A model generated the notes under the pieces. That model was not told the origin of the DNA. It did no database searches and saw only the letters and a list, made by a program, of their open reading frames with translations. Of a stretch of DNA of 64,000 nucleotides, positions 279-15,002 are shown piece by piece. The translations under genes and the position numbers were made by a program. The first letter of the stretch is position 1, and the number at the start of each line of letters is the position of its first letter. The stretch is taken from contig CAMTVD010000013.1 of the NCBI GenBank assembly GCA_947085095.1, forward strand, positions 1 through 64,000, written 5' to 3'. The stretch comes from an uncultured Thermus sp. (GTDB lineage: Bacteria > Deinococcota > Deinococci > Deinococcales > Thermaceae).

Positions 279-332
279 GGGTATAACCCAGCCCGGCTTT
301 GTGGCCCCGCCCCCTTGTCCTTTCGCTACTTC

Positions 333-341
333 TGGTATACT
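333..341 (+). promoter_or_regulatory. Extended -10 promoter element for the thi operon
   Basis: TGgTATACT about 10 nt upstream of the riboswitch. Confidence 0.6.
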
Positions 342-351
342 GGCCCCTGCA

Positions 352-444
352 GGCTAGGGGTGCCCCAATGGAGGGGCTGAGAGCTGGGTGGTCCCAGCAA
401 CCCTTGGAACCTGATCCGGGTAATGCCGGCGGAGGGAAGCCTAT
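352..444 (+). ncRNA. TPP (thiamine pyrophosphate) riboswitch aptamer
   Basis: Hallmarks GGGGTGCC...GCTGAGA...ACCC..GAACCTGATCCGGGTAATGCCGGCG.AGGGAA directly upstream of thiamine genes. Confidence 0.95.
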
Positions 445-520
445 GCGGAGACACCCCTCACACAACCCAACCTCCCCAGGGCCGCGTGGGCCTTTCCCGT
501 CGGCCTGAGGGGGTGGAAGC

Positions 521-1141
521 TTGCTGGGAAGGCTCTATCTGGTGGTGACTCCCAGGCCCGGTTGGTCCTGGGAGGAAACCTTGGACCGCACCGAACGGGC
601 CCTGGCGGGGGGCGTGGAGGTCTTGCAGCTTCGGGCCAAGGACTGGGAGGCGCGCCCCACCCTGGCCCTGGGAGAGCGGATGCTGGCCCTCGCCCGGCGC
701 TATGGGGTCCCCTTCATCCTGAACGACCGCCCTGACCTCGCCGCCCTCCTGGGGGCGGACGGGGTCCACCTGGGCCAGGGGGACCTAACCCCGGAGGAGG
801 CCCGGCGCTTCTTCCAGGGGATGGTGGGCCGCTCCACCCACGCCCCGGAGCAGGCCCTGAGGGCCCTGGAGGAGGGGGCGGACTACCTCTCCGTGGGGCC
901 GGTGTGGGAGACCCCCACCAAGCCGGGGCGGCCCGCAGCGGGGCTCGCTTACGTGCGCTGGGCGGCGGAAAACCTGGGAGAGAGGCCCTGGTTCGCCATC
1001 GGAGGGATTGACCTGGCCAACCTGGACCAGGTCCTAAAGGCCGGGGCCAGGCGGATCGTGGTGGTGCGGGCCATCCTGGACGCCCCAGACCCCGAGGGGG
1101 CGGCTAGGGCTTTTAGGGAGCGGCTCTATGGTGTGGCTTAA
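521..1141 (+). CDS. thiE: Thiamine-phosphate synthase
   Basis: LYLVVT, VLQLRAK, FILNDRPDLA, GVHLGQGD, GPVWETPTK, AIGGI motifs; TTG start. Confidence 0.95.
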   Translation: MLGRLYLVVTPRPGWSWEETLDRTERALAGGVEVLQLRAKDWEARPTLALGERMLALARRYGVPFILNDRPDLAALLGADGVHLGQGDLTPEEARRFFQGMVGRSTHAPEQALRALEEGADYLSVGPVWETPTKPGRPAAGLAYVRWAAENLGERPWFAIGGIDLANLDQVLKAGARRIVVVRAILDAPDPEGAARAFRERLYGVA

Positions 1142-1322
1142 CGGCGAGGCGAGGCCCCTCGAGGGCCGGACCCTGAAGGAGGTCCTGGAGGAGCTGGGGG
1201 TAGAGCTGGAGCGGGTGGCCGTCCTCGTGAACGAGGAGGCCTTCCCCGGGCGGGAGCTCCCTCCCCACGTCCTAAAGGAGGGGGACGTGGTGGAGGTGGT
1301 TTCCCTCATGCAAGGAGGGTAG
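1128..1322 (+). CDS. thiS: Sulfur carrier protein ThiS
   Basis: 64 aa, C-terminal GG, LNGE start, operon context. Confidence 0.95.
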   Translation: MVWLNGEARPLEGRTLKEVLEELGVELERVAVLVNEEAFPGRELPPHVLKEGDVVEVVSLMQGG

Positions 1323-2105
1323 ATGGACACCTGGAAGGTGGGCGACGTGGAACTCAGAAGCCGCCTCATCCTGGGCTCGGGCAAGTTCCGGGACTTCGGG
1401 GTGATGCGGGAGGCCATCCAGGCGGCGGGGGCCGAGGTGGTCACGGTTTCCGTGAGGCGGGTGGAGCTCAAGGCCCCGGGGCATGTGGGGCTTTTGGAGG
1501 CCCTCGAGGGGGTGCGCCTCCTCCCCAACACCGCGGGGGCCCGTACGGCCGAGGAGGCTCTCCGCCTCGCCCGGCTGGGCCGGGCCCTCACCGGGGAGCG
1601 GTGGGTGAAGCTGGAGGTCATCCCGGACCAGAGCTACCTCCTCCCCGACCCCGTGGAGACCCTAAAGGCGGCGGAGCGGCTTTTGGAGGAGGGCTTCCTG
1701 GTCCTCCCCTACATGGGGCCAGACCTGGTCCTGGCTAGGAAGCTCGCCGCCTTAGGCACGGCCACGGTGATGCCCCTGGCCGCCCCCATCGGCTCGGGCT
1801 GGGGGGTGAAGACCCGGGCCCTTCTGGAACTCTTCGCCCGGGAAAGGGCGGGCCTGCCCCCGGTGGTGGTGGACGCTGGCTTAGGCCTCCCCTCCCACGC
1901 CGCCGAGGTGATGGAGCTGGGCCTGGACGCGGTTTTGGTCAACACCGCCATCGCTGAGGCGGAAGACCCCCCGGCCATGGCCGAGGCCTTCCGCCTGGCG
2001 GTGGCGGCGGGGAGGAAGGCCTACCTGGCCGGGCCCATGCGGCCCAGGGAGGGGGCGAGCCCCTCGAGCCCCACCCAGGGGGTGCCCCTGGGAGGTTCCG
2101 GGTGA
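1323..2105 (+). CDS. thiG: Thiazole synthase
   Basis: [36 protein letters not shown] motifs. Confidence 0.95.
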
Positions 2106-3031
2106 AGGCCGAGGTGGCGGTGGTGGGGGCGGGGATCATCGGGGCCCTCGCCGCCTACGAGCTGGCCAAGCGGGGCCTTTCCGTCCTCCTCCTGGACGCG
2201 GGGAAGGAGGGGGCGGCCACCCTAGCCAGCGCCGGGATGCTGGCCCCCTACCCCGAGGGGCTTTCCGGGGAGCTTCTGGAGGCGGGGCTTTTCGGCCTGG
2301 CCTACTACCAGGAGCTCCTGGCCGAGCTCAAGGAGCGGGGCTTCCCGGTGGAGGCGGGCTTTTCCGGCACCCACGTGGTGGCCCTGAGCGAAGGGGAGAA
2401 GGCGGCCTGGGATGCCCGGGAACCCCTCCCTTACCCGGTGCGGGGCGGCCAGGGGGCGAGGCGTTTCCCCGGGGGGTACGTGAACCCCAGGGCCCTCCGG
2501 GAGGCCCTGCTCGCCGCCCTTCAGGGGATGGGCGTGCCCCTGCTCCAGGCGGAGGCCGAGGGGGTGGAGGAGGGGCGGGTGCGCCTGAAGGAGGGGGAGG
2601 CCCGGGCCCGCTTCCTTCTCCTCGCGGTGGGGGCCTGGGGCGGCCGCTTTGGCCTAGGGGTGCGCCCCCTTAGGGGAGAGGCCCTCCTCCTAGGGGGTGA
2701 GGCCCCGCCCGGCCCCCTCTTCGCCGGGGACGGCTACCTCCTCCCCCGGGAGGGCGGGGTCTACGTGGGGGCCACGAGCCGGGAGGGCTGGGCCGAGGGG
2801 GTGGACCTCTTCGGCCTCCGCTGGCTTGCCGACTACGCCCACGAGCGCTTTCCCCTCCTGGAGGAGGCCCGCTTCCGGGGGGTCCTCTGGGGCTATAGGC
2901 CCCTGGGGGAGCTCTTCGTGGGGGAGGTGGCGAGGGGGGTCTACGCGGCGGTGGGGCACGGGCGGAACGGGGTCCTCCTGGCCCCGTGGACGGCGAAAAG
3001 GCTTCTTGGGCTCATGGGGGTGGAAGGATGA
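2102..3031 (+). CDS. thiO: Glycine oxidase (FAD-dependent)
   Basis: GAGIIG Rossmann motif, [17 protein letters not shown]; thi operon context. Confidence 0.88.
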
Positions 3032-4335
3032 CGCAGCTGGAGGCGGCAAGGAAGGGGATCATCACCGAGGAAATGGCCTACGTGGCGGAAAGGGAAGGGG
3101 TTTCCCCAGAGTTTGTGCGGGAGGGGGTGGCGGCGGGGCGGATCGTGATCCCCCGGAACCCCAACCACGGGACCCTGAAGGACTTCAAGGGGATCGGGGA
3201 GGGCCTCTCCGTGAAGGTGAACGCCAACCTGGGGACCTCATACGATTACGTGGAGGTGGAGGAGGAGGTGGAGAAGGCCAGGGTGGCCATCCGCTACGGG
3301 GCGGACACCATCATGGACCTCTCCACCGGGGGGGACCTCAAGGAGATCCGTAGGCGGATCCTCGAGGTGGCCACTGTGCCCTTGGGCACCGTGCCCATCT
3401 ACGAGGCGGAGTTCCGGGCGGCCAAGCGCAAGAGCTTCTTTGACATGTCAGCAGACGAGCTCTTCGGGGTCATAGAGGAGCACGGGAAGGAGGGGGTGGA
3501 CTACATCACCGTCCACGCCGGGGTGACCCTCAAGAACCTGGAGGTCTACCGGAACACCTCCCGCACCACGGGGATCGTGAGCCGGGGCGGGGGGCTCATG
3601 GCCGCCTGGATGCTCCACCGGGGGGAGGAGAACCCCCTTTACGCCCGCTTTGACGATCTCCTGGAGATCGCCCGCACCTACGACATGACCCTTTCCTTAG
3701 GGGACGGCCTAAGGCCCGGCTCCCTGGCGGACAGCACCGACCGGGCCCAGATCGCCGAGCTCCTCACCATCGGGGAGCTGGTGGAAAGGGCGAGGAGGGC
3801 GGGAGTGCAGGCCATGGTGGAGGGCCCCGGGCACGTCCCCCTAAACGAGGTGGCCGCCAACGTGCAGATCCAGAAGAAGCTCACGGGCCACGCCCCCTTC
3901 TACATCCTGGGGATGCTCCCGGTGGACACGGCCGCGGGCTTTGACCACATCGCCGGGGCCATTGGGGGGGCTTTGGCGGGGTGGTGGGGGGCGGACATGC
4001 TCTGCTACCTGACCCCGGCGGAGCACCTGGGCCTCCCCACCCCCGAGCACGTGAAGGAGGGGGTCATCGCCTTCAAGATCGCCGCCCACGCCGCCGACGT
4101 GGCCCGGGGAAACGCCAGGGCCCTGGAAAGGAACCAGAGGATGTCCGAGGCCCGCTACCGCCTGGACTGGGAGGGGCAGTTCGCCCTAGCCCTCTTTCCC
4201 GAGGAGGCGAGGCGGCTCAAGGAGGAGCGGGGCTCCAGGACCAAGGCCTGCAGCATGTGCGGCCCCTTCTGCCCCATGAACCTGGTGGAGGCGGTTCTGA
4301 AGGGGAGAGCTCGGATGGAGCTTCCCCTAGCCTAG
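3028..4335 (+). CDS. thiC: Phosphomethylpyrimidine synthase
   Basis: [10 protein letters not shown] start overlapping thiO stop, KVNANLGTS, SRGG, EGPGH, C-terminal CSMCGPFC. Confidence 0.96.
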   Translation: MTQLEAARKGIITEEMAYVAEREGVSPEFVREGVAAGRIVIPRNPNHGTLKDFKGIGEGLSVKVNANLGTSYDYVEVEEEVEKARVAIRYGADTIMDLSTGGDLKEIRRRILEVATVPLGTVPIYEAEFRAAKRKSFFDMSADELFGVIEEHGKEGVDYITVHAGVTLKNLEVYRNTSRTTGIVSRGGGLMAAWMLHRGEENPLYARFDDLLEIARTYDMTLSLGDGLRPGSLADSTDRAQIAELLTIGELVERARRAGVQAMVEGPGHVPLNEVAANVQIQKKLTGHAPFYILGMLPVDTAAGFDHIAGAIGGALAGWWGADMLCYLTPAEHLGLPTPEHVKEGVIAFKIAAHAADVARGNARALERNQRMSEARYRLDWEGQFALALFPEEARRLKEERGSRTKACSMCGPFCPMNLVEAVLKGRARMELPLA

Positions 4336-4337
4336 CC

Positions 4338-5114
4338 ATGCGGACCGCCCTCACCATCGCCGGCTCCGACCCCTCCGGGGGGGCGGGGCTCCAAGCGGAC
4401 CTGAAGGCCTTCCAGCGCTTCGGGGTCTACGGGATGGCGGCCCCCACCCTCCTCACGGTGCAGAACACCCTGGGGGTGAGGCGGGTAGAGCTCCTGCCTC
4501 CGCAGTTCGTCTACGAGGAGATCGCCGCCATCGCCCAGGACCTCCCCGTCCACGCGGCCAAGACCGGGGCCCTGGGGAGCGCTGCCATCATCGCCAAGGT
4601 GGCGGAGGCGGTGGAGCGCTTCGGCATCCAGCCTTTGGTGGTGGACCCGGTCATGGTGGCCAAAAGCGGGGACCCCCTCCTGGACCCCTCCGCCGTTTCC
4701 ACCCTGGTGGAGGGGCTTTTTCCCCTCGCCACCCTCATCACCCCCAACCGCATGGAGGCGGAGGCCCTTCTAGGGAGGCCCATCCGGGACCTGGAGGAGG
4801 CCGAGGAGGCTGCCTTGTCCCTTCTGGACCTGGGCCCCAAGGCCGTCCTCCTCAAGGGGGGGCACCTCGAGGGGGCGGAGAGCGTGGATCTCCTGGCCAC
4901 AAGGCAGGGCTTGAAGCCTTTCCCCGCTCCCCGCATTCCCACCCGGAACACCCACGGCACCGGGTGCACCCTCTCCGCCGCCATCGCCGCCCTCTTGGCC
5001 CTGGGAAAGCCCTTGGAGGAGGCGGTGGCCGAGGCCAAGGCCTACCTCACCCGGGCCCTCATGACCGCTCCTCCTTTGGGCCACGGCCACGGGCCCCTGA
5101 ACCACCTGGCTTGA
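4338..5114 (+). CDS. thiD: Hydroxymethylpyrimidine/phosphomethylpyrimidine kinase
   Basis: LTIAGSDPSGGAGLQADLK, DPVMVAKSG, TPNRMEA, THGTGCTLS. Confidence 0.95.
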   Translation: MRTALTIAGSDPSGGAGLQADLKAFQRFGVYGMAAPTLLTVQNTLGVRRVELLPPQFVYEEIAAIAQDLPVHAAKTGALGSAAIIAKVAEAVERFGIQPLVVDPVMVAKSGDPLLDPSAVSTLVEGLFPLATLITPNRMEAEALLGRPIRDLEEAEEAALSLLDLGPKAVLLKGGHLEGAESVDLLATRQGLKPFPAPRIPTRNTHGTGCTLSAAIAALLALGKPLEEAVAEAKAYLTRALMTAPPLGHGHGPLNHLA

Positions 5115-6899
5115 TCACCAGGCCCGAACCCCCTGGACCAGGGCGTAGAGGTAGACCACGGCCCCGGCATCCCAGGCTTGGGGGCGGCAGGCCACGGGGT
5201 AGGGCACAGGGGGTAGGCCCGCCTCCCTGGGGAAGCCCCCCACCAACTCGGGTAGCCGCAGGTCGGGCTGGCTTCGGGCCAGGTCCAGGAGGGCCTGGGC
5301 CACCCACGCCCCCTCCTCCTTGCGGCCGTAGCGGAAGAGGCCACCAGCGAAGAGGGCGGTGTCGTGGGGCCAGACGGAGCCGTTGTGGTAGGAAAGGGGG
5401 TTGTAGCGGGCCTCCTTGCTCCCCAAAGTCCGCAGGCCCCAGCCTGACCACATCTCCTTGGAAAGCAGCGTTTGCAAGAGTTCTTCCGCCTTTTCCTCGG
5501 GGACGGCCCCAGTCCAGAGGAGGTGGCCGGCGTCAGAGGCCTTAACCCTCAAGGGCTCCTTCCAACGGTCCAGGGCCAGGGCGTAGGTCTTCATCTCCTC
5601 CAGCCAGAAGCGCTCCTGGATGAGCCGGAAAAGCTCCGCAGCGCGCTCCCTTTCCCTCTCTGCCCTTTCCCCTTCCCCCAGGGCCTGATAGAACCCGCTT
5701 GCTGCCAGGCGGGCCGCATAGGCGTAGCCCTGGACCTCGCTCACCGCCAAAGGGGGTTCGGCCAGACGGCCGTCTTGGTGGCTCATGGAGTCGTGGGAGT
5801 CCTTCCAGGACTGGACGGCGAGCCCGTGGCCTTTGGGGACGAACTCCAAAAGCCCGTCCCCGTCCAGATCAGCCCCCTCCAGCCAGGCCAAGGCCGCCTC
5901 CCAGTGGGGCCTGAGTTCCCGCACCAAGGCCAGGTCCCCCGTGAGGTCCAGGTAGCGGCCGAGAAGGACGAGGAAAAGGGGGGTAGCGTCCACGGTGCCG
6001 TAGTAGCGGGCGAAGGGAACCTTTCCCAGGCGGGAGAGTTCCCCCAGGCGCACCTCGTGGAGGATCTTCCCCGGTTCCTCCTCCCGGAAGGGGTCCAGGA
6101 CCGCCCCCTGCCGCCTGGCCAGGTAGCGGAGGACTCCCCGGGCCACCTCCTTGCCCCAGGGCAGGAGCATGAAGGCGGTGAGGAGGCTGTCCCGGCCGAA
6201 GGGGGCCACGAACCAGGGGATGCCGGCAGCGGGCACCGGGCCCTCGGGGGTGGCGAGGAGGAGGGCCCTAAGGTCCAAAAGGGCCTGCCTCATGGCCGAA
6301 CCCCAGGGCTCCTCGGCCTCGGGGAAGGCGGCGAGGAAGGCCTCGTAGGGGGGCAGGGCGCCCTCTTCCCCTAAGGAGCTTTCCAGATCCAGCGTCCAAC
6401 CCAGGGTTTCTTCCCCTTTGGGCGGAAGGAAAACCCGGTAACCCCCTGGGGGTGGGGAGGGAGTGAGGGTGATGCGCTTCTCCACCCCGTCTGGAGCCCG
6501 GTAGACTAGGCCCCTCCTCTCCCCGGGTACGGGGTGCCAGCCCCGAGCCTGGAATAAATCTTGAAAACTGGGCTCTACCTCCAGCCCTAAGGCCACCTCC
6601 TGGGGAGCGTTCCCTAGGTTTTGGAAGCGGAGGACCTCCTCCACCCGGCCCCGGGCCACCTTGAGGGTGCGCCTCAGGTAGAGCTCCCCATCTGCCCCCC
6701 CAAACTTGGCCCAATCCTGGACCAGGCGGTCGGGCCTGGGGGAGCGGCTTTGCAGGAGGTCAAGCCCCGGGGGGAGGACCAGACGGTAGCGGGCGAGGAA
6801 GCGGGTGTCGTGGCGGTAAATCCCCTCCGCCCCTGCCTCGGCGAAGCCTTGGTGGTTGAGGACCAGGTAGGTGTCATCCTCCTTGAGAGGAAGCATCAT
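5115..6899 (-). CDS. Amylo-alpha-1,6-glucosidase / glycogen-debranching-like glycoside hydrolase
   Basis: GIYRHDTRFL N-terminal domain, AGIPWFVAPFGRDSL, EEPGKILHEVR, YYGTVDATPLF, WKDS, YHNGSVWPHD, CRPQAW. Confidence 0.85.
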   Translation of the reverse strand: MMLPLKEDDTYLVLNHQGFAEAGAEGIYRHDTRFLARYRLVLPPGLDLLQSRSPRPDRLVQDWAKFGGADGELYLRRTLKVARGRVEEVLRFQNLGNAPQEVALGLEVEPSFQDLFQARGWHPVPGERRGLVYRAPDGVEKRITLTPSPPPGGYRVFLPPKGEETLGWTLDLESSLGEEGALPPYEAFLAAFPEAEEPWGSAMRQALLDLRALLLATPEGPVPAAGIPWFVAPFGRDSLLTAFMLLPWGKEVARGVLRYLARRQGAVLDPFREEEPGKILHEVRLGELSRLGKVPFARYYGTVDATPLFLVLLGRYLDLTGDLALVRELRPHWEAALAWLEGADLDGDGLLEFVPKGHGLAVQSWKDSHDSMSHQDGRLAEPPLAVSEVQGYAYAARLAASGFYQALGEGERAERERERAAELFRLIQERFWLEEMKTYALALDRWKEPLRVKASDAGHLLWTGAVPEEKAEELLQTLLSKEMWSGWGLRTLGSKEARYNPLSYHNGSVWPHDTALFAGGLFRYGRKEEGAWVAQALLDLARSQPDLRLPELVGGFPREAGLPPVPYPVACRPQAWDAGAVVYLYALVQGVRAW

Positions 6900-6902
6900 G
6901 GC

Positions 6903-8276
6903 TCACTCCTTGACCGCACCCACGTTCACTCCCTCCACGAAGTAGCGTTGGAATACGGCGAAGAGGATGAGGATGGGGATCATGGACAAAAACCCTCCCG
7001 CCAGGATGAGCCCCCAGTCTCCCACCTGGCCGTAAGCGTTGCGGAAGGAGAGGAGGCCTAGGGGCAGGGTGTAGATCTCCCGGGGGCTGGTGAGGACGAT
7101 GAAGGGCCAGAAGAACTCGTTCCAAGCGCCTTGGAAAGTGAGGATGGCCGAGGCCCCCAGGGCGGGGGTAGCCATGGGCAAGACGATGCGGAAGAGGGTC
7201 TGCACGGGGGTGGCCCCGTCAATGAGGGCGGCCTCCTCCACCTCTCTGGGAATGGATTCAAAAAATTGCTTCATGATGAACACGGCCCCGGCCCCCACCA
7301 AACCGGAGAGGATGAGGCCGGCGTAGGTGTTGAGCAGGGTCTCCACGCCGAAGAGTCGGGAGAGGCCGAAGATGCCGTCTCGGAGGACCAGGTAGTTGGA
7401 GATGAAGGTCACTTGAGCGGGTACCATCATGCTGAAGAGGAGGAGGAGGAAAAGGGCCTGTCTGCCCGGGAAGCGGAGCCGGGCCAGGGCGTACCCGGCC
7501 ATGGAGGCGAAGACCAGGGTGGTGATCACCTTGATGGCGGCGATGAGGAAGGAGTTCAAGGTCCAGCGCAAGAAGAGGCTCTGCCCCGTTTCCAGGCTGC
7601 GGGTTTCCCGGAAGGCGCGGACGTAGTTGTGAAAGGTGTAGCCTAGGAACCCGGGGACCACGTTGTCCCAGGAGGCGACCCGGCCCCGGCGCTCAAAGCG
7701 GGTGGGGTCCAGGGTGGCCGCTACCAGGAGGGCCCCCCGGGGAGCCTCGAGGTCCAGGGGAACCCGCTCCAAGTAGGGCCCCTCCCTCTGGTAGGCGATG
7801 CGGAGGCGGTAGCGGTAGAGGTACCCTTCGGCCTCCCCCATTCGGAAGGGCCTCTTCTCCAGAAGCTTGGGTCCCTCGAGGCGCACGTAGTCGGCGGCGT
7901 AGGGGTTTTCAAACACCGCCCCCATCCCCGCCCCGGGCCTGCGCCGGGGGATTTCCGCCTGAAGCTCCGGAGGGGTGGTCTCCGGCCAGAAATAGGCGAC
8001 CTCCAAGACCACCTCCCTTCCCGGGCGCATCCCGCCAAGCCAAGGGTCACCTCCTCCCTCGTTGCCCAGACGCCAGGCTGCTACCCAGTTCTTAGGGCTG
8101 ACCTGGGGTAAGCCCAGGGTGAAGGGCCATTCCAAGGGGTTGGTCTTCAAACTCGCCAGAAAGCCCATGAGGAAGGGCCCCAAGAAGAAAACCCCAAAGC
8201 CCAGGAGCAGGCCATAGATCCAGGCGACCCGGGCCCAGCGTCGCCTGCTTGCTTCCTTGGCGCTCACTCTCCCCAC
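6903..8276 (-). CDS. Carbohydrate ABC transporter permease (MalG-like) with large extracytoplasmic insertion
   Basis: EAA motif (EEAALIDGA), AGYALARLRFPGR, WNEFFWP, QRYFVEG. Confidence 0.9.
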   Translation of the reverse strand: MGRVSAKEASRRRWARVAWIYGLLLGFGVFFLGPFLMGFLASLKTNPLEWPFTLGLPQVSPKNWVAAWRLGNEGGGDPWLGGMRPGREVVLEVAYFWPETTPPELQAEIPRRRPGAGMGAVFENPYAADYVRLEGPKLLEKRPFRMGEAEGYLYRYRLRIAYQREGPYLERVPLDLEAPRGALLVAATLDPTRFERRGRVASWDNVVPGFLGYTFHNYVRAFRETRSLETGQSLFLRWTLNSFLIAAIKVITTLVFASMAGYALARLRFPGRQALFLLLLFSMMVPAQVTFISNYLVLRDGIFGLSRLFGVETLLNTYAGLILSGLVGAGAVFIMKQFFESIPREVEEAALIDGATPVQTLFRIVLPMATPALGASAILTFQGAWNEFFWPFIVLTSPREIYTLPLGLLSFRNAYGQVGDWGLILAGGFLSMIPILILFAVFQRYFVEGVNVGAVKE

Positions 8277-9370
8277 CCCCTTTCGCTCACGCCGAAGCGG
8301 CGCTGGAGGAGGACCACAAGGAGGGTAAGCCCTGCCAGGAAGAGGGCCGCCGCCGAGGCTAGGCCCACCCGGGGCGTGGCTCCGGAGGGGAAGACGTTGC
8401 CGTAAACGTAGTAGGCCAGAGTGATGGTGGCCTCGAGCGGGGCGCCGCCTGAGCCACCCACAAAGAGCACCTGGTCAAAGAGCTGCAGGGTGCCGATAAT
8501 GCCCAGGGTGATGACCAGGAAGAGGACCGGCCGCAGGAGGGGCACGGTGATGCGGCTGAACATGACCCAGGGGCTCGCCCCGTCCAGGGCCGCCGCCTCG
8601 TAGAGGGTCTTGGGAATGCCCTTGAGCCCCGCCAGGAAGAGGACCATGAAGGTGGGGATGGTGGTGAAGGTGTTCATGAGGATAATGGCCCAGAGGGGGT
8701 AGGGGATACCGAGGAAGGCGGCGGTGGTGGGGAGCCAAGAGATTTCCACCCGCACCTCCCGAGGCTGAACCAAGCCCGCAAGGCTTAAGGCGTAGGCCCC
8801 AAGAAAGGCCAAGGGCAGGCTCACCAGGGCCAAAGCGGGGTCAAGGAACCGGGCGGGGATGCCCCTTCGCCTTTCCCAAAGCACCTGAGCTCCTTGGACT
8901 GAGGCGAAGATCAGGGCCACGGTCAGGAGATGGGGGAGATAGGCGAGGAAGAGGGAAAGTCCCTGGTTTACTAAGCCCGTGCGCTGGAAGAGCCAGAGGA
9001 GGAGGAGGCTCGCCGCTGCGGTGGAGATGACCGAGGGCAGGTAGTAGACGGTGCGGAAGGCGGTGATCCCCCTTAGGGGCTGGTTCAGGGCCAAGGCCAG
9101 AAGCAGGGCAAGAAAGGTCTGCAAGGAGGTCACCACCAGGCTGTAGGCCAGGGTGTGCCACAGGGCCTTGAGGAAAAAAGGGTCTTGGAAGAGGCGGAGG
9201 TAGTTGGCCAGGCCCACGAACCGGGGCGGGGAGAAGAGGTCGTAGTCGGTGAAGCCAAAGTAGAAGGCGCGCACAAAGGCGTAGAGAAAAAACACCCCCA
9301 GGGTGAAGAGGAAGGGGAGAAGGAGGAAGAGGGCGTAGAGGCCCTCGAGAGTCCGGGCTTTGAGGCGCAT
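8264..9370 (-). CDS. Carbohydrate ABC transporter permease (MalF-like)
   Basis: FVGLANY, FRTVYYLP, LYEAAALDGA; start at MRLK after GGGAGG. Confidence 0.9.
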   Translation of the reverse strand: MRLKARTLEGLYALFLLLPFLFTLGVFFLYAFVRAFYFGFTDYDLFSPPRFVGLANYLRLFQDPFFLKALWHTLAYSLVVTSLQTFLALLLALALNQPLRGITAFRTVYYLPSVISTAAASLLLLWLFQRTGLVNQGLSLFLAYLPHLLTVALIFASVQGAQVLWERRRGIPARFLDPALALVSLPLAFLGAYALSLAGLVQPREVRVEISWLPTTAAFLGIPYPLWAIILMNTFTTIPTFMVLFLAGLKGIPKTLYEAAALDGASPWVMFSRITVPLLRPVLFLVITLGIIGTLQLFDQVLFVGGSGGAPLEATITLAYYVYGNVFPSGATPRVGLASAAALFLAGLTLLVVLLQRRFGVSERGWGE

Positions 9371-9383
9371 AGGCCCTCCCAAA

Positions 9384-9418
9384 GGGAAAAGGGGCGGTGG
9401 GAACCGCCCCCTTTTCCC
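9384..9418 (-). terminator. Intercistronic stem-loop after the binding-protein gene (attenuator/mRNA stabiliser)
   Basis: GGGAAAAGGGGCGGT-GGGA-ACCGCCCC(C)TTTTCCC inverted repeat. Confidence 0.65.
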
Positions 9419-9422
9419 AGGT

Positions 9423-10658
9423 CTACCTCCTGCCCGTGAGCCGGTCCAGGGCCACCTGGGCGTCCCTTAGGGCCTGGTCCACGGTCTTTTGGCCGGTGAT
9501 TACAGCCTGTAGGGCTTCGTTGATGGGCCGCATCCAGTCACCCCCAAAGCCCCGGAACTTGAAGGGGTGGACCGCACCCCCTTGGGCCGTGGACCCCTGG
9601 AAGACGATGCGGTTCAGCTCGGGCTCCTTGCCCGGGCGCTGGAAGTAGGGGTTGTTGGCCAGGGCCCTGCGGCTGGGGATGGCCAGGCCCCGTTCCAGGA
9701 CCCACTGCTGGGCCTCGGGGGAGGTGAGGGCCTTGAGGACTTTGGCCGCCGCCTCCTTGTTCCTGCTTTGGGCGTTCATGCTCCAGGAGACCGTGAAGAC
9801 GAAGTTACCCCGCCTCTTGGTCACCGGGTCCAGGGGGAGGAAGGTGGTGCCGTAGCGCAGGTTGGGGGCCTTGTCCCGGAGGAAGCCCGCGATCCAGGCT
9901 CCCTCTATGGCCGTGGCCGCCTTCTCCCCTCCAAAGCACCCTCCGGTCCAGCCCTCGCCCAGGTCCTGGGCGAACCGGGCGGCCCCCCGCTTCACCAGGC
10001 CGGTGTACCACTCAAAGGCCCGGCGGAAGTTCCCGTCCAAGAGGGTGTGCCCTTTCTCATCAAAGGGCTTCCACCCGGTGGCGAAGGCGAAGGCCCCGAA
10101 GCGGGCGAAGTCCGCTACCACGCAGAAGCCGGCTACGTCCTTTAGCTTGGCCTGAACTTCGCGGAGCTTGGCCTCAAAGGTTTCCCAGGTGTCCTGCTGG
10201 TTGGGGTATCTTACCCCTGCCTCGTCAAAGAGGTCCCTGTTGAACTGCAGGGCCAGGGTGTTGAAGTCCTTGGGGATGCCGTAAAGCTTGCCCTGGTAGG
10301 TGAACGCCTGGACCAGGTTGGGCAGAAACTCCCCCACCTCCTGCCTGGTGAAGTACCGGTCCAAGGGCTCCACCCTGCCGGTGGCGAAGAGGCTCTCCGA
10401 CCAGAAGATGTCCACATAGAAGAGGTCCGGAGCTGTGCCCGCGGACAGAGCGTTGAAGAGCCACTGGGTATAGTCGCCTTCTATCGGTTCGTAGATGACA
10501 CGGATTCCTTCTTTGTCTAACCTGGGTTGCACCACCTCCCGGAGAAGCCCGGTGACGATGGCGATATCGGGGCCGCCCCAGCCCGAGATGCGCACCTGGG
10601 TCTGGGCCAAGGCGGACAAGCCCAGAAGGACCAAAAAGGTTGCGAGAATTTTACGCAT
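9423..10658 (-). CDS. Sugar ABC transporter substrate-binding protein
   Basis: Signal peptide, AGTAPDLFYVD, GKLYGIPKDF, FNRDLFDEAG, C-terminal TVDQALRDAQ. Confidence 0.9.
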   Translation of the reverse strand: MRKILATFLVLLGLSALAQTQVRISGWGGPDIAIVTGLLREVVQPRLDKEGIRVIYEPIEGDYTQWLFNALSAGTAPDLFYVDIFWSESLFATGRVEPLDRYFTRQEVGEFLPNLVQAFTYQGKLYGIPKDFNTLALQFNRDLFDEAGVRYPNQQDTWETFEAKLREVQAKLKDVAGFCVVADFARFGAFAFATGWKPFDEKGHTLLDGNFRRAFEWYTGLVKRGAARFAQDLGEGWTGGCFGGEKAATAIEGAWIAGFLRDKAPNLRYGTTFLPLDPVTKRRGNFVFTVSWSMNAQSRNKEAAAKVLKALTSPEAQQWVLERGLAIPSRRALANNPYFQRPGKEPELNRIVFQGSTAQGGAVHPFKFRGFGGDWMRPINEALQAVITGQKTVDQALRDAQVALDRLTGRR

Positions 10659-10709
10659 GCTTTACCTCCAAACAACTTCCCAGAAGTTAATGCGCCCATT
10701 GCCTATGGC

Positions 10710-11702
10710 CTAGATTTTCTTTCCGGTTATCACCTCCTTTGGGGCCGTGGTCCCCCGCACCACCAAGTGCACGGGCACCCGTTTGGCCACGGGCGCCTCG
10801 CGTGCCATGGCCTTCTTGAGTAGCAGGACGGCCTCCTCGGCTATAGTGGGGATGTCTTGGTGGATAGTGGTGAGTTCCGGGCCCACCTCGGGTAGGTCAT
10901 CGTAGCCCACAAGGCTCACGTCCCAGGGTATGTGAAGCCCCAGGTCCTCGAGGGCGGCCTTGGCCCCTAGAGCCATCTCGTCTGAGGCGGCGAAAAGGGC
11001 TGTGAAGCGCAAGCCTCCTTCCCAGGTTCTGCGGACCACCCGGTAGGCGGTGAGGGGGTCAAAGCCGCCGTCCAGTACGAGTTCGGGCCTGAAGTCCAGG
11101 CCTCTTTCCTCGAGGGCCTTGCGGTAGCCCAGAAGGCGTTCCCGGCCCGCCTGGTGGTGGAGGTGGCCGGTGAGGTGGGCTACCTCGCGGTGCCCAAGTT
11201 CCAGGAGGTGCCGGGTGGCCTGGTAGCCACCGTCCACGTCGTCCGGGGCTACAGCGAACACTTCAGACTGGGCACCGATGAGCACAAAAGGCTTTCCTGC
11301 CTTTCGCAGGTGCTCCACCCTTGGATCGTGGTCATGGGCCCCTAGAAGCACGTACCCTAAGGTTTCTTCCTGGGGGAGACCTAAGGGGTCCGTGGGAACC
11401 TCTTTAACGCGCAAGCCTTCTTTGGCCAGGCTTTCGGAGAGGGCCTCGAGGAGCAGAGCAAAGTAGGGGGTGTAACGGCGGACTCCCGGGGCCAGGAGAA
11501 GGCCCACGGTGGTGGACACCCCGACAAGCTCTCGGGCGGCTGCGGAGGGGGTGAATCCCAAGCTGTTCGCCAGCTTCAAAATCCGTCTCCGGGTCTCTGG
11601 GTTCACACCTGGGCGGTTGTTGAGAGCTCGGCTAACAGTTCCTACGGAAACGTTAGCCAACTTAGCTATCTCTTTGATGGTATAACCTCTTTTCCGCGCC
11701 AT
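10710..11702 (-). CDS. LacI-family transcriptional regulator
   Basis: TIKEIAKLANVSVGTVSRALN HTH; DVSLVGYDD, LTTIHQD. Confidence 0.93.
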   Translation of the reverse strand: MARKRGYTIKEIAKLANVSVGTVSRALNNRPGVNPETRRRILKLANSLGFTPSAAARELVGVSTTVGLLLAPGVRRYTPYFALLLEALSESLAKEGLRVKEVPTDPLGLPQEETLGYVLLGAHDHDPRVEHLRKAGKPFVLIGAQSEVFAVAPDDVDGGYQATRHLLELGHREVAHLTGHLHHQAGRERLLGYRKALEERGLDFRPELVLDGGFDPLTAYRVVRRTWEGGLRFTALFAASDEMALGAKAALEDLGLHIPWDVSLVGYDDLPEVGPELTTIHQDIPTIAEEAVLLLKKAMAREAPVAKRVPVHLVVRGTTAPKEVITGKKI

Positions 11703-11748
11703 CGTAACCGTTTACGATCAGACTAACCTTCACCTGGCTTTCTGTCAA
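11701..11748 (-). promoter_or_regulatory. Promoter and LacI-type operator of the sugar operon
   Basis: TTGACA-17 nt-TAGTCT followed by palindrome ATCGTAA-ACGG-TTACGAT (central CG) overlapping the start codon. Confidence 0.75.
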
Positions 11749-11767
11749 GGGGCCCAATGCAAAACCA

Positions 11768-12043
11768 CGGTCCATCCCCACGTGCGTGGGGACTACTCTT
11801 AGAAGGTTATGGTAGTCTTTCCGACCCTGGTCCATCCCCACGTGCGTGGGGACTACGGAGGGGGACACGGTCATCTGGAACGGTATCCCCGGTCCATCCC
11901 CACGTGCGTGGGGACTACTGGCTCCAGGGGGACCCCAGCCTCGAGGGGGTCGGTCCATCCCCACACGCGTGGGGATGGACCGGAGACGAAGGCGGCCGGA
12001 AATGTCCATAGGGCGTAGTCCCCACACGCGTGGGGAAGGCAGC
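11768..12043. CRISPR. Small type I-E-like CRISPR array (5 repeat units, 4 spacers) with an internal orientation switch; no cas genes or leader in window
   Basis: Repeats at 11768-11796, 11828-11856, 11890-11918 read GTAGTCCCCACGCACGTGGGGATGGACC(G/A) on the minus strand; hybrid palindrome at 11951-11982; degenerate plus-strand repeat GTAGTCCCCACACGCGTGGGGAaggcagc at 12015-12043; spacers of 31, 33, 32, 32 nt. Confidence 0.93.
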
Positions 12044-12044
12044 T

Positions 12045-12075
12045 AAAGGGGCCGGGAAAATAGCTTCCCGACCCC
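12045..12075 (-). terminator. Intrinsic terminator after etfA
   Basis: Minus strand GGGGTCGGGAA-GCTATT-TTCCCGGCCCC-TTT. Confidence 0.65.
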
Positions 12076-12112
12076 TTCTAGCCCCCTCGAGCGGAGGGAT
12101 GAGCTACGCTCC

Positions 12113-13054
12113 TTAGTCCTTGAGCTTCTTCACCGCCTGGATCAGGGCGGGAAGGACCTGGTGCACGTCCCCCACGATGCCGTAATCGGCGTGCTTGAAG
12201 ATAGGGGCCTCGGGGTCCTTGTTGACGGCCACGATGTACTTGCTCTTGTTCATCCCCGCCAGGTGCTGCACCGCCCCGGAGACCCCCAGGGCGATGTAGA
12301 GGGCGGGCTGGACCGTTTTGCCCGTCTGGCCCACCTGCTCGCCATAAGGCCGCCAGCCGGCGTCCACCACCGCCCGGGTGGCGCCCACAGCACCCCCAAG
12401 GAGGGCCGCAAGCTCCTCCGCCCCCTTGAAGGCCTCGGCGCTCCCCATGCCGCGCCCCCCGGTGACCACCACGTTGGCCTCGGTGAGGGAGACCCCCTTC
12501 TTCTCCTCCGCTACCCTTTCCAGCACCTCCACCGTGGGCACCTCGGGCACCGCCAGGGGCACCACCTCCGCCGAGGCCTCCAGGGGCTCCGCCAGGGGGG
12601 TGGTGTTGGGCTTCACCGTGAGGACCACGGGGAGGGCCGCCTTCACCCTTTGCGTGACCCGGTTCAGGTAGGCGTAGCGGGTGGCGTGGACCTCGCTCCC
12701 TTCCAGGGAGGAGTCCAGGGTGTCCTCCAGAAGCCCCGCCTTGAGGGCGTAGGCCACCCGGCCCAGATAGGTCCGGCTCTGCCGGCTGGAGGGGGCCACC
12801 ACCGCCTTGGCCCCCATTTTGGCCGCCTCCAGCACAGCAACCGCCCACTTCTCGGCGGTGTAAGGACCCAAGGTGGCGGTGTAGAGGGTTTCCACGTACT
12901 TTCGGGCCTCCTCCAGGGGGGCCTTCTCCTCGGCCAGGAGCACCCCGACCGCCTTCTCCCCCAGGCCCTCAGCCAGCCTCCGGGCCCGGGTGAGGGCCTC
13001 GAGGCTCCCCTTGCGCAACTTGTTGCCGTCGTGGTCCAGAACTACGAGAACCAT
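12113..13054 (-). CDS. etfA: Electron transfer flavoprotein alpha subunit
   Basis: [42 protein letters not shown]. Confidence 0.96.
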
Positions 13055-13063
13055 GTTGCCCTC

Positions 13064-13807
13064 CTAGATGACCTTGGCCTCTTCGTGAAGAAGCCGGACC
13101 AGCTCCTCCGCCGCCGCCACCGGGTCCTTGCCGTCCAGAATCCTGCCCAGGCGCTGCTTCTCCTGGATTTCTTCAGAAAGGAGCTCCACCCTTGCCCTCA
13201 CCTCCGCCTGCACCTTGCGGATCTCCTTCTTCTTAGCCTTCATGATCCCGGGCAGGGTGGGGTAGCGGGGCTCGTTGAGCCCCTGCTGGGTGGTGAAGAG
13301 GGCGGGAAGCCGCACCCGCACCCACTCGGCCCCCTCGTCCAGGTCGTGCTTGGCTTTGGCCGTATCCCCCTCCAGCTCTATGGCCGTGGTCCAGGCCACC
13401 ACCGGCACCCCAAGCCCCTCGGCCAGGGCCGCTCCCAGGGCCTGGCTGTCCCAGTCCGCCTGCTGCCCCCCGGTGAGGACCAGGGTGGGGGCCTCCTCTT
13501 TTAGCACGGGAACCAGGGCCTCGGCCACGGCCACGGGGTCGGCGAAGCCCTCAAAGACCACGTGCACTCCCCGGTCCATGCCCATGGCGAGGGCGGTGCG
13601 GATGGCCTCCTCGGCGCGCTCGGGGCCAAAGCCCACCACCACGGCTTCCCCCCCGTGCTTCTCCTTGAGGCGGAGGGCCTCCTCCACCGCATACTCGTCC
13701 ATCTGGTCCAGGATGAGGGTGGCCCCCGAGAGGTCCACCTTTCCCCCCTGGATCCTGAGCCGGCTTTCCCCGTCTGGAACCTGTCGGATCACCGCTACGA
13801 ACTTCAT
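13064..13807 (-). CDS. etfB: Electron transfer flavoprotein beta subunit
   Basis: IRQVPD, DEYAVEEALRLKE, ALAMG, NEPRYP..GIMKAKKK. Confidence 0.96.
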   Translation of the reverse strand: MKFVAVIRQVPDGESRLRIQGGKVDLSGATLILDQMDEYAVEEALRLKEKHGGEAVVVGFGPERAEEAIRTALAMGMDRGVHVVFEGFADPVAVAEALVPVLKEEAPTLVLTGGQQADWDSQALGAALAEGLGVPVVAWTTAIELEGDTAKAKHDLDEGAEWVRVRLPALFTTQQGLNEPRYPTLPGIMKAKKKEIRKVQAEVRARVELLSEEIQEKQRLGRILDGKDPVAAAEELVRLLHEEAKVI

Positions 13808-13819
13808 TCGCTACCTCCT

Positions 13820-14965
<1,146 letters not shown>

Positions 14966-15002
14966 GCCGCACCTCCTTGGGGAGGGCCAGGGGGCCACTC
15001 TC

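Follow-up and report, generated by a model that had tools for sequence, protein, structure and literature searches.

A 64,000-nucleotide stretch of DNA from an uncultured Thermus species (GenBank assembly GCA_947085095.1, contig CAMTVD010000013.1, positions 1 to 64,000; referred to here as the window) contains, at positions 11768-12043, a short type I-E CRISPR array in which the repeats change orientation at a palindromic hybrid repeat. The explanation that we favor, with a probability of roughly 0.55, is that this relic is the collapsed remnant of a canonical Thermus type I-E locus from which the operon of CRISPR-associated (cas) genes between two arrays was deleted. The results support the view that repeats from two arrays, lying in opposite orientation, exchanged DNA within their self-complementary core, and a cas operon presumably once lay between those two arrays. 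The relic is located between a gene for a LacI-family regulator (lacI) on the left and the gene for the alpha subunit of electron transfer flavoprotein (etfA) on the right.

The relic consists of five type I-E repeat units with a period of 60-62 nt, of which three are in minus orientation, one is the hybrid, and one is in plus orientation. Repeats of ~29 nt that are regularly spaced by spacers of ~32 nt (31, 33, 32, and 32 nt) are what is expected of a type I-E array, but the single orientation expected of such an array is lacking. On the plus strand, the first three repeats read CGGTCCATCCCCAC-GTGC-GTGGGGACTAC, the reverse complement of GTAGTCCCCAC-GCAC-GTGGGGATGGACCG, which places them in minus orientation with a GCAC loop in the sense direction. 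R1 (11768-11796), a full repeat, is the outermost, or tail, repeat of the minus part. R2 (11828-11856) has a T as its first plus-strand base, so that its last sense base is A rather than G, and R3 (11890-11918) is again a full repeat. The accompanying minus-strand spacers are S1 (11797-11827, 31 nt), S2 (11857-11889, 33 nt), and S3 (11919-11950, 32 nt). The hybrid repeat (11951-11982, 32 nt, without a strand; inverted repeat I10) is composed of two repeat 3' halves and has the sequence CGGTCCATCCCCAC-ACGC-GTGGGGATGGACCG, with two 14-nt arms that are 100% complementary around a 4-nt loop. It is followed on the plus strand by spacer S4 (11983-12014, 32 nt), which has no homologue in 31 related genomes, and by the terminal repeat R5 (12015-12043), which has the sequence GTAGTCCCCACACGCGTGGGGAAGGCAGC with a degenerate 3' end, GTGGGGAAGGCAGC. 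The loop types differ between the two sides: the sense loop is GCAC in R1-R3 and ACGC in the hybrid and R5, and the first 24-28 nt of R5 are a 96-100% match to ACGC-loop repeats of relatives. The three leftward repeats, the one rightward repeat, and the hybrid with 14-bp arms that had been described in a first-pass annotation made from the sequence alone were confirmed in both coordinates and sequence.

The self-complementary core of these repeats, CCCCAC-N4-GTGGGG, occurs five times in the window compared to an expectation of 0.09, and none of 100 shuffled sequences reached five copies. As single-stranded DNA, the hybrid is predicted to form a hairpin of -17.9 kcal/mol, which was equalled by none of 200 shuffles, compared to -6.8 kcal/mol for the DNA hairpin of the normal repeat R3. 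The arms of the palindrome end exactly at the repeat boundaries, and S3 and S4 on either side are both 32 nt long, which fits the joining of two real repeat-spacer units. A fold-back (inverted) duplication was rejected as the origin of the structure, as the reverse complement of S3 is identical to S4 at only 8 of 32 positions.

The source genome is a hot-spring Thermus bin from a short-read metagenome (41 contigs, 2.08 Mb, 93% complete), and a change of repeat orientation in such a bin could in principle be an assembly error or a strand-switch chimera formed in the library at the palindromic repeat. Links between 31-mers across identical 29-nt repeats are ambiguous, and the 31-mer link between the lacI flank and the array does pass through 29-nt repeats that are also present on another contig of the bin (C29); one base after the repeat confines the lacI-array path to the relic locus. 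In run X4, the lacI flank was without contig cover over window positions 11300-11920, and the piece carrying S1 and S2 (R1-R3) had a depth of 51 compared to 331 for the piece from the hybrid to etfA, which may reflect strain heterogeneity or a filtering gap. However, separate Logan per-run contigs from all four runs (X1 record 7, X2 record 13, X4 record 30, and X3 records 22 and 23) spanned R3-S3-hybrid-S4-R5-etfA without a single difference, at depths of 299-627. The four runs belong to one study, probably the bin's own source, so that the assemblies are independent and the sample is not. Parts of the window are also present in hot-spring runs X5-X14. The depth at the junction was similar to that of the flanks (529 versus 564 in X1). 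Furthermore, S3 and S4 are unrelated, and because the loops are not self-complementary, the 31-mers of the hybrid cannot be derived from normal repeats by a graph error. The orientation switch is not an assembly misjoin, and an artefactual origin of any kind is barely credible.

Type I-E loci of related Thermus genomes provide a model for what the relic may once have been. In 18 such loci (G005, G019, and 16 more), the same repeat, loop aside, flanks operons that contain Cse1. A minus array lies to the left of the cas operon and a plus array to the right, with the array tails pointing outward, in 16 of the 18, so that the divergent arrays flanking cas genes that the first-pass annotation had proposed to look for are indeed carried by relatives. 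The two exceptions are G019, which has a downstream array only, and G015, in which the contig ends too early to tell. In both G005 and G019 the leader and the cas genes are on the GTAGTC side of the repeats, which bears out the assignment of that end as the leader side. Seven of the 16 two-array loci (G013, G007, G024, G003, G012, G022, and G008) pair an upstream GCAC array with a downstream ACGC array, and a clean reverse pairing, with ACGC upstream and GCAC downstream, was found in none of the 16. The relic, with GCAC on its minus side and ACGC on its plus side, has the same pairing and polarity as those seven loci, in agreement with the earlier suggestion that two different arrays contributed to it.

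The ends of the relic also resemble natural array ends. The ACGC array of G016 has a degenerate terminal repeat that, like R5, starts with GTGGGGAAG, and this likeness makes R5 look like a true, old terminal repeat. The terminal repeats of the relatives' upstream arrays are often perfect or nearly perfect, and thus R1 may be a natural end as well. The hybrid itself was carried by this genome alone within the genus. A match to the hybrid pattern with one mismatch in G015 lies inside a coding sequence with no array and was dismissed as chance. Neither of the outcomes that had been named beforehand as refuting the fusion of two arrays was found: the junction is bridged by contigs, and the hybrid was found in none of the relatives.

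In complete Thermus type I-E loci, the upstream array is transcribed away from the cas operon and the downstream array in the same direction as the operon, with both tails outward. Read on one strand, the upstream repeat is CGGTCCA-TCCCCAC-GTGC-GTGGGGA-CTAC and the downstream repeat is GTAG-TCCCCAC-ACGC-GTGGGGA-TGGACCG. Because the repeat core is self-complementary, these oppositely oriented repeats share TCCCCAC-NNNN-GTGGGGA in direct register, with 16 of 18 bases identical, which supports the direct microhomology in the core that the first-pass annotation had supposed. If one upstream and one downstream repeat recombined illegitimately within the left stem arm, everything between them would be lost: the younger spacers, the leaders of both arrays, and the cas operon, roughly 10 kb or more to judge from G005. 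What remained would be the upstream tail (R1-R3), the hybrid with its two 3' halves and the downstream loop, and the downstream tail of S4 and R5. Because the hybrid has the downstream loop, the exchange point would fall in TCCCCAC (11958-11964) or in the first two loop bases. Candidate routes include breakage at an extruded hairpin or cruciform followed by microhomology joining, or template switching.

What is present in the window corresponds to the products of such a deletion. To the left of the junction is the left part of an upstream repeat with its GCAC tail, and to the right is the right part of a downstream repeat with an ACGC tail that ends in a degenerate terminal repeat. The reciprocal hybrid is missing from the genome, as a deletion predicts. 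The tails-outward layout and the GCAC/ACGC pairing of the relatives argue for deletion, as does the absence of type I-E cas genes from this genome.

That absence was apparent from searches of the 93%-complete bin for Cse1, Cas6e, Cas7e, and the type I-E Cas2 (PF09481, PF08798, PF09344, and PF09707), which gave no matches; the same searches matched their controls in Thermus thermophilus. The only Cas1 match in the genome (C7:22187-22976) is in two pieces in different frames and is possibly a broken cas1 of another CRISPR type. No leader was found at the relic, and leader homologues occur in the genome only at C29:980-1061 and C13:71647-71810, so that neither arm of the relic has a leader, as had been noted before. 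With no leader and no Cas6e for transcript processing, the relic is almost certainly inert today. The absence of four type I-E cas families from the genome agrees with the part of the earlier proposal that concerned loss of a CRISPR-Cas locus; at this particular spot, the former cas operon is putative.

Only 12 type I-E repeats are present in the whole genome, at four places that are all relics. Besides the relic in the window, one is a four-repeat minus array with loop GCAC on contig C29 (767-1061; L043), which has a leader of ~80 nt like leader A of G005 and is not followed by cas genes. A putative toxin-antitoxin-like gene pair lies beyond its tail. Another is a solitary degenerate repeat on contig C25 (11243-11271; L044), immediately after the stop codon of a gene and near the contig end. 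The fourth place, at C13:71473-71839 (L042:7473-7839), has a minus repeat at 71473-71501 and a plus repeat with loop ACGC at 71811-71839. The segment preceding it, C13:55987-71461, is collinear with G005 1562000-1577903, directly before the upstream array of G005. The C13 relic begins with a degenerate minus repeat and one spacer-length stretch, continues with an 82-nt stretch with 88% identity to the 3' end of a vapC-like gene located past the downstream array of G005 and with a 187-nt stretch that matches the end of the last cas gene and leader B at 73% identity, and closes with one degenerate plus ACGC repeat, an order that is scrambled relative to G005. The 12 kb after it have no homologue in five relatives. 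Judged from these remains, the cas operon syntenic to that of G005 was lost at C13 by another route, a deletion that kept leader B. Because leader B was kept there, the window relic must derive from a further locus or from further arrays. A single parent locus for both relics was considered and fails, as a core-to-core deletion would have removed leader B.

Several observations weigh against the derivation of the window relic from a deleted locus. Adjacency of lacI and etfA was found in none of 31 relatives, in which the nearest listed pair is 56 kb apart, and the comparison of the lacI-etfA interval among Thermus genomes that the first-pass annotation had proposed came to nothing for that reason. 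Repeats are present within 1.5 kb of etfA in none of 29 etfA loci, and there are none beside lacI in G019 or G005. No uncollapsed allele, whether a shared spacer or a locus at either flank, was found among the 31 relatives, which include no genome of the same species. The site that is syntenic to the locus of the nearest relative (G005) is the one on C13, 60 kb off, so that the ancestor would need a second type I-E locus or further arrays. In G003, a GCAC array closes with an ACGC terminal repeat, and the difference in loops is for this reason suggestive of two arrays but not proof of them. The cas genes could also sit on unbinned DNA, the genome being a 41-contig metagenome bin. Finally, the relic sits exactly at an inversion-type break in synteny, where it fills the gap between the ends of homology, and a deletion accounts for this break only if a lineage-specific CRISPR-Cas island is placed at the junction.

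The break in synteny is the basis for an alternative in which two arrays of the same direction at distant sites, one beside lacI and one beside etfA, exchanged through the inverted microhomology of the core and flipped the DNA between them; the hybrid would then be one of the two junctions. Window positions 297-11755 form an orthologous block in G019 and G005 with 87% identity. On contig 4 of G019, this left flank corresponds to 1916344-1927802 on the plus strand, and the right flank, from 12114, corresponds to 301523-294199 on the minus strand; in G005, the left flank is at 1686057-1674633 (minus) and the right flank at 1516088 onward (plus). In comparison with either genome, the flanks meet at like ends, the arrangement that an inversion gives. 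Furthermore, the former neighbors of the two flanks are now adjacent on contig C26. Gene P (C26:2512-4581), the gene after etfA in G019 and G005, encodes 689 amino acids without a Pfam family. On C26 it is followed by an amidohydrolase gene (C26:4615-5697) and then by a LamB/YcsF gene, the homologue of which is 5 kb from lacI in G019. In Thermotogales, CRISPR arrays reportedly border large inversions of the chromosome, and the relic is like these in placing a CRISPR at an inversion-type break in a thermophile; it differs in that CRISPR sequence is present at only one of the two junctions, and with a hybrid repeat.

The putative reciprocal junction is the 33-nt interval between the stop of gene P and the start of the amidohydrolase gene (C26:4582-4614; L041). 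It contains no repeat, leader, or spacer, and no terminator or promoter is evident in it. The 9-mer GGGCCATCC at C26:4582 resembles a repeat end but was rejected as a repeat stump: in the 19 positions after it, agreement with the repeat is no better than chance, and the genome has 194 copies of the 9-mer. The 5'-half hybrid GTAGTCCCCAC-N4-GTGGGGACTAC that should accompany an inversion was found, with up to one mismatch, in 0 of 32 genomes, this one included. No relative has arrays at either site, and G005 fits an inversion only with further rearrangements, as its amidohydrolase gene is 44 kb beyond lacI. Thus, while the flanks are joined by the like ends expected of an inversion, CRISPR sequence or hybrids are not present at both junctions, and an inversion mediated by the repeats, although core-mediated inversion does occur elsewhere (see below), seems unlikely. 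The first-pass annotation had proposed that the reciprocal junction would decide between deletion and inversion. The absence of the reciprocal hybrid agrees with deletion; the junction is nevertheless of the inversion type relative to G019 and G005, and its counterpart on C26 is free of CRISPR sequence. We prefer the collapse of a CRISPR-Cas island at one breakpoint to the later loss of reciprocal array heads. A model in which a 59-kb block with etfA was excised as a circle was rejected: it would place gene P next to the vapBC-Y side, whereas gene P actually adjoins the amidohydrolase gene. Further along C26, at 7211-7351, lies a multi-copy element of ~140 nt that several sites in G005 and G031 match at 82-86% identity. 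It occupies the position of the lacI-transporter block of G005, a hint of movement of this block from genome to genome.

Hybrid repeats are not confined to Thermus. A scan with the pattern CCATCCCCAC-N4-GTGGGGATGG returned 16 metagenome loci and nine genome loci, of which four and two, respectively, are inside arrays; 12 of the 16 and seven of the nine were set aside as lone palindromes without an array. In one metagenomic array (L060), 49 minus repeats are followed by a 3'-half hybrid and then by a plus repeat, and all inter-repeat segments are distinct. This array has the same build as the window relic and, by analogy, was counted for the deletion of the DNA between two arrays. In a second metagenomic array (L059), both reciprocal hybrids (at ~983-1011 and 2997-3028) bound an inverted block of 33 units, and all 50 inter-repeat segments are distinct. 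L059 is an inversion inside an array. The two arrays have 34 spacers and the 3'-half hybrid in common, L060 has minus repeats at the place of the 5'-half hybrid of L059, and both contigs end ~100 nt past the 3'-half hybrid. Another candidate (L067), at a contig end with two cores at a spacing of 41 nt, was uninterpretable.

L059 is a natural example of a further route to the window relic, in which part of a single plus array near etfA was flipped and the leader side, together with the 5'-half hybrid, was later severed when a rearrangement brought lacI to the site. Mixed loops within one array are known, in the downstream array of G010 and in the terminal repeat of G003. In the relic, however, the part that would have been flipped is uniformly GCAC and the part left in place is ACGC, the cut-off part would be expected at the reciprocal junction, which is clean, and one event more is needed than for a deletion. 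It is therefore quite improbable that the relic arose in this way.

In unrelated bacteria, the hybrid is the leader-proximal type I-E repeat, ~50 nt from cas2-cas1 (L053:870-901 and L061:2997-3028). These perfect palindromes have arms of 20 and 19 nt, of which 6 and 5 nt, respectively, belong to spacer 1, and they look like the product of fold-back template switching at the site of spacer integration. A third leader-proximal hybrid, with 14-nt arms, is found at L056:87-118. Template switching at quasipalindromes, a known mutational process, is described in the available text of earlier reports as turning a short imperfect inverted repeat into a longer perfect one (PMC7202029, PMC8604942, and PMC13100816) and as homogenizing and lengthening inverted-repeat arms (PMC8604942 and PMC13100816), and what these texts describe fits the palindromized first repeats of L053 and L061. 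The window hybrid might likewise have been palindromized in place, had template switching replaced the short arm of a minus repeat with a copy of the long arm. In contrast to the extended arms of L053 and L061, which are a signature of fold-back copying, the window arms stop at the repeat boundary and S4 retains its full 32 nt. The two sides of the hybrid have different, real spacers and repeats in opposite orientation, and R5 is a true plus repeat with a GTAGT 5' end, which arm copying cannot give. Local copying of an arm does not produce this arrangement, and palindromization in place is highly improbable for the window hybrid.

S1 matched no phage, nothing else in its own genome, and none of the fetched loci. 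The region S1-S4 gave only two chance matches at E = 9 against 50,697 phage records (IMG/VR was not searched). Self-targets and shared spacers were absent from the genome and all fetched loci, in which the longest non-self match, 15-21 nt, was at chance level. The best match to the relic array in relatives was 78% over 155 nt and was due to the repeats only; likewise, 24 of 29 matching plasmid records were from Thermus, and every match was driven by the repeats. An Rfam scan of 9000-15000 up to E = 1 detected no CRISPR-DR family, only sub-threshold chance matches to microRNA and small RNA families. No promoter-like site was found in 11500-12300, and the sole terminator-like site was the repeat hairpin within R1.

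To the left of the relic, lacI (10710-11702, minus strand) was identified by its Pfam matches (LacI, 9.8e-16; Peripla_BP_3, 1.3e-31), and a sugar ABC transporter is encoded further left. The region upstream of lacI (11703-11755) is still homologous to G019, the alignment with which ends at 11755; the sequences were also compared by eye. The next 12 nt, AATGCAAAACCA (11756-11767), have no homologue in G019 or G005 and could be an array trailer, a spacer stump, or the end of the old lacI-amidohydrolase intergenic region. On the right, 69 nt without a homologue in the 31 relatives (12044-12112, minus strand) separate R5 from the stop of etfA. A hairpin recognized by eye in this interval (12048-12058 paired with 12065-12075, followed by TTTA on the minus strand; not called by the consensus scan) is probably the etfA terminator. 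The etfA gene (12113-13054, minus strand; Pfam ETF_alpha, 1.7e-34) was matched in all 31 relatives, with homology breaking off at its stop codon, and beyond it are etfB and an acyl-CoA dehydrogenase gene. The 8-bp direct repeat AAGGGGCC is present on both sides of the relic (11747-11754 and 12046-12053); it was not accepted as a target duplication, as the genome has 457 copies and the pair may be due to chance. At the start of the window, positions 1-140 are a multi-copy element of ~140 nt with 97-100% identity to many sites in G030, G031, and G017; it is probably one end of an insertion sequence, which would account for the contig break.

The relic shares with the canonical Thermus type I-E locus its 29-nt repeat family, 32-nt spacers, tails-outward polarity, and the GCAC/ACGC pairing of seven of the 16 two-array loci. 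Unlike such a locus, it has no leaders, no cas genes, and almost none of its spacers, its tails meet in one hybrid, and its position in the genome is unmatched in 31 relatives. Orphan arrays have been reported to average eight repeats, and neutral loss of cas clusters has been proposed (Bernheim et al. 2019, PMC7145637, available text). The relic resembles these orphans in being short, with five repeats, and in belonging to a genome without the cognate cas cluster; the available text of that report gives no mechanism at the level of a junction, whereas the relic has a specific scar that points to an event. Kupczok et al. (2015, PMC4524480, available text) trace spacer loss and array recombination to homologous exchange between direct repeats, and there too the repeats are the recombination substrate by which intervening units are removed. 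In the exchange described in that text, whole repeats of the same orientation align and a normal repeat is left, whereas in the relic oppositely oriented repeats would pair by the palindromic core only, leaving a hybrid of two 3' halves. The "order inversions" of the same text refer to spacer order rather than strand. In the literature searched, which left most subscription journals outside, we found no account of repeats that switch orientation at a two-3'-half hybrid, none of a tail-to-tail fusion of arrays, and nothing that connects CRISPR repeats with quasipalindrome template switching. Arrays that shrink or are orphaned are already well documented, as is the neutral loss of cas genes, and the relic is a further form of array decay.

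Loss of CRISPR-Cas systems and the origins of orphan arrays are common and mostly unexplained at the level of sequence. From the scar left as a hybrid of two 3' halves, one can read which repeats exchanged and where, and such a scar can be found with a simple pattern in any genome with palindromic repeats. The mechanism may be general, given the inversion within an array and the palindromized first repeats beside cas2 in unrelated bacteria. We tentatively propose, as a possibility that is still doubtful, that the hairpin core of the type I-E repeat is a recurrent substrate for strand switching, and that this represents an unrecognized class of array rearrangement with three outcomes. If this is true, the arrays that flank the cas genes would be fused tail to tail and the immune system excised in one step (the window and L060), a block of spacers would be inverted within an array, silencing those spacers (L059), or the leader-proximal repeat next to cas2 would be palindromized, which may block spacer uptake (L053, L061, and L056). 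The structure of the repeat would itself then be a built-in self-destruct route for these loci. In the genome studied here, the array is almost certainly a dead relic, and it is at the same time the mark of a rearrangement junction. One exchange of this kind would be enough to take out the whole system in Thermus, in which 16 of the 18 loci examined have arrays tail-outward around the cas genes.

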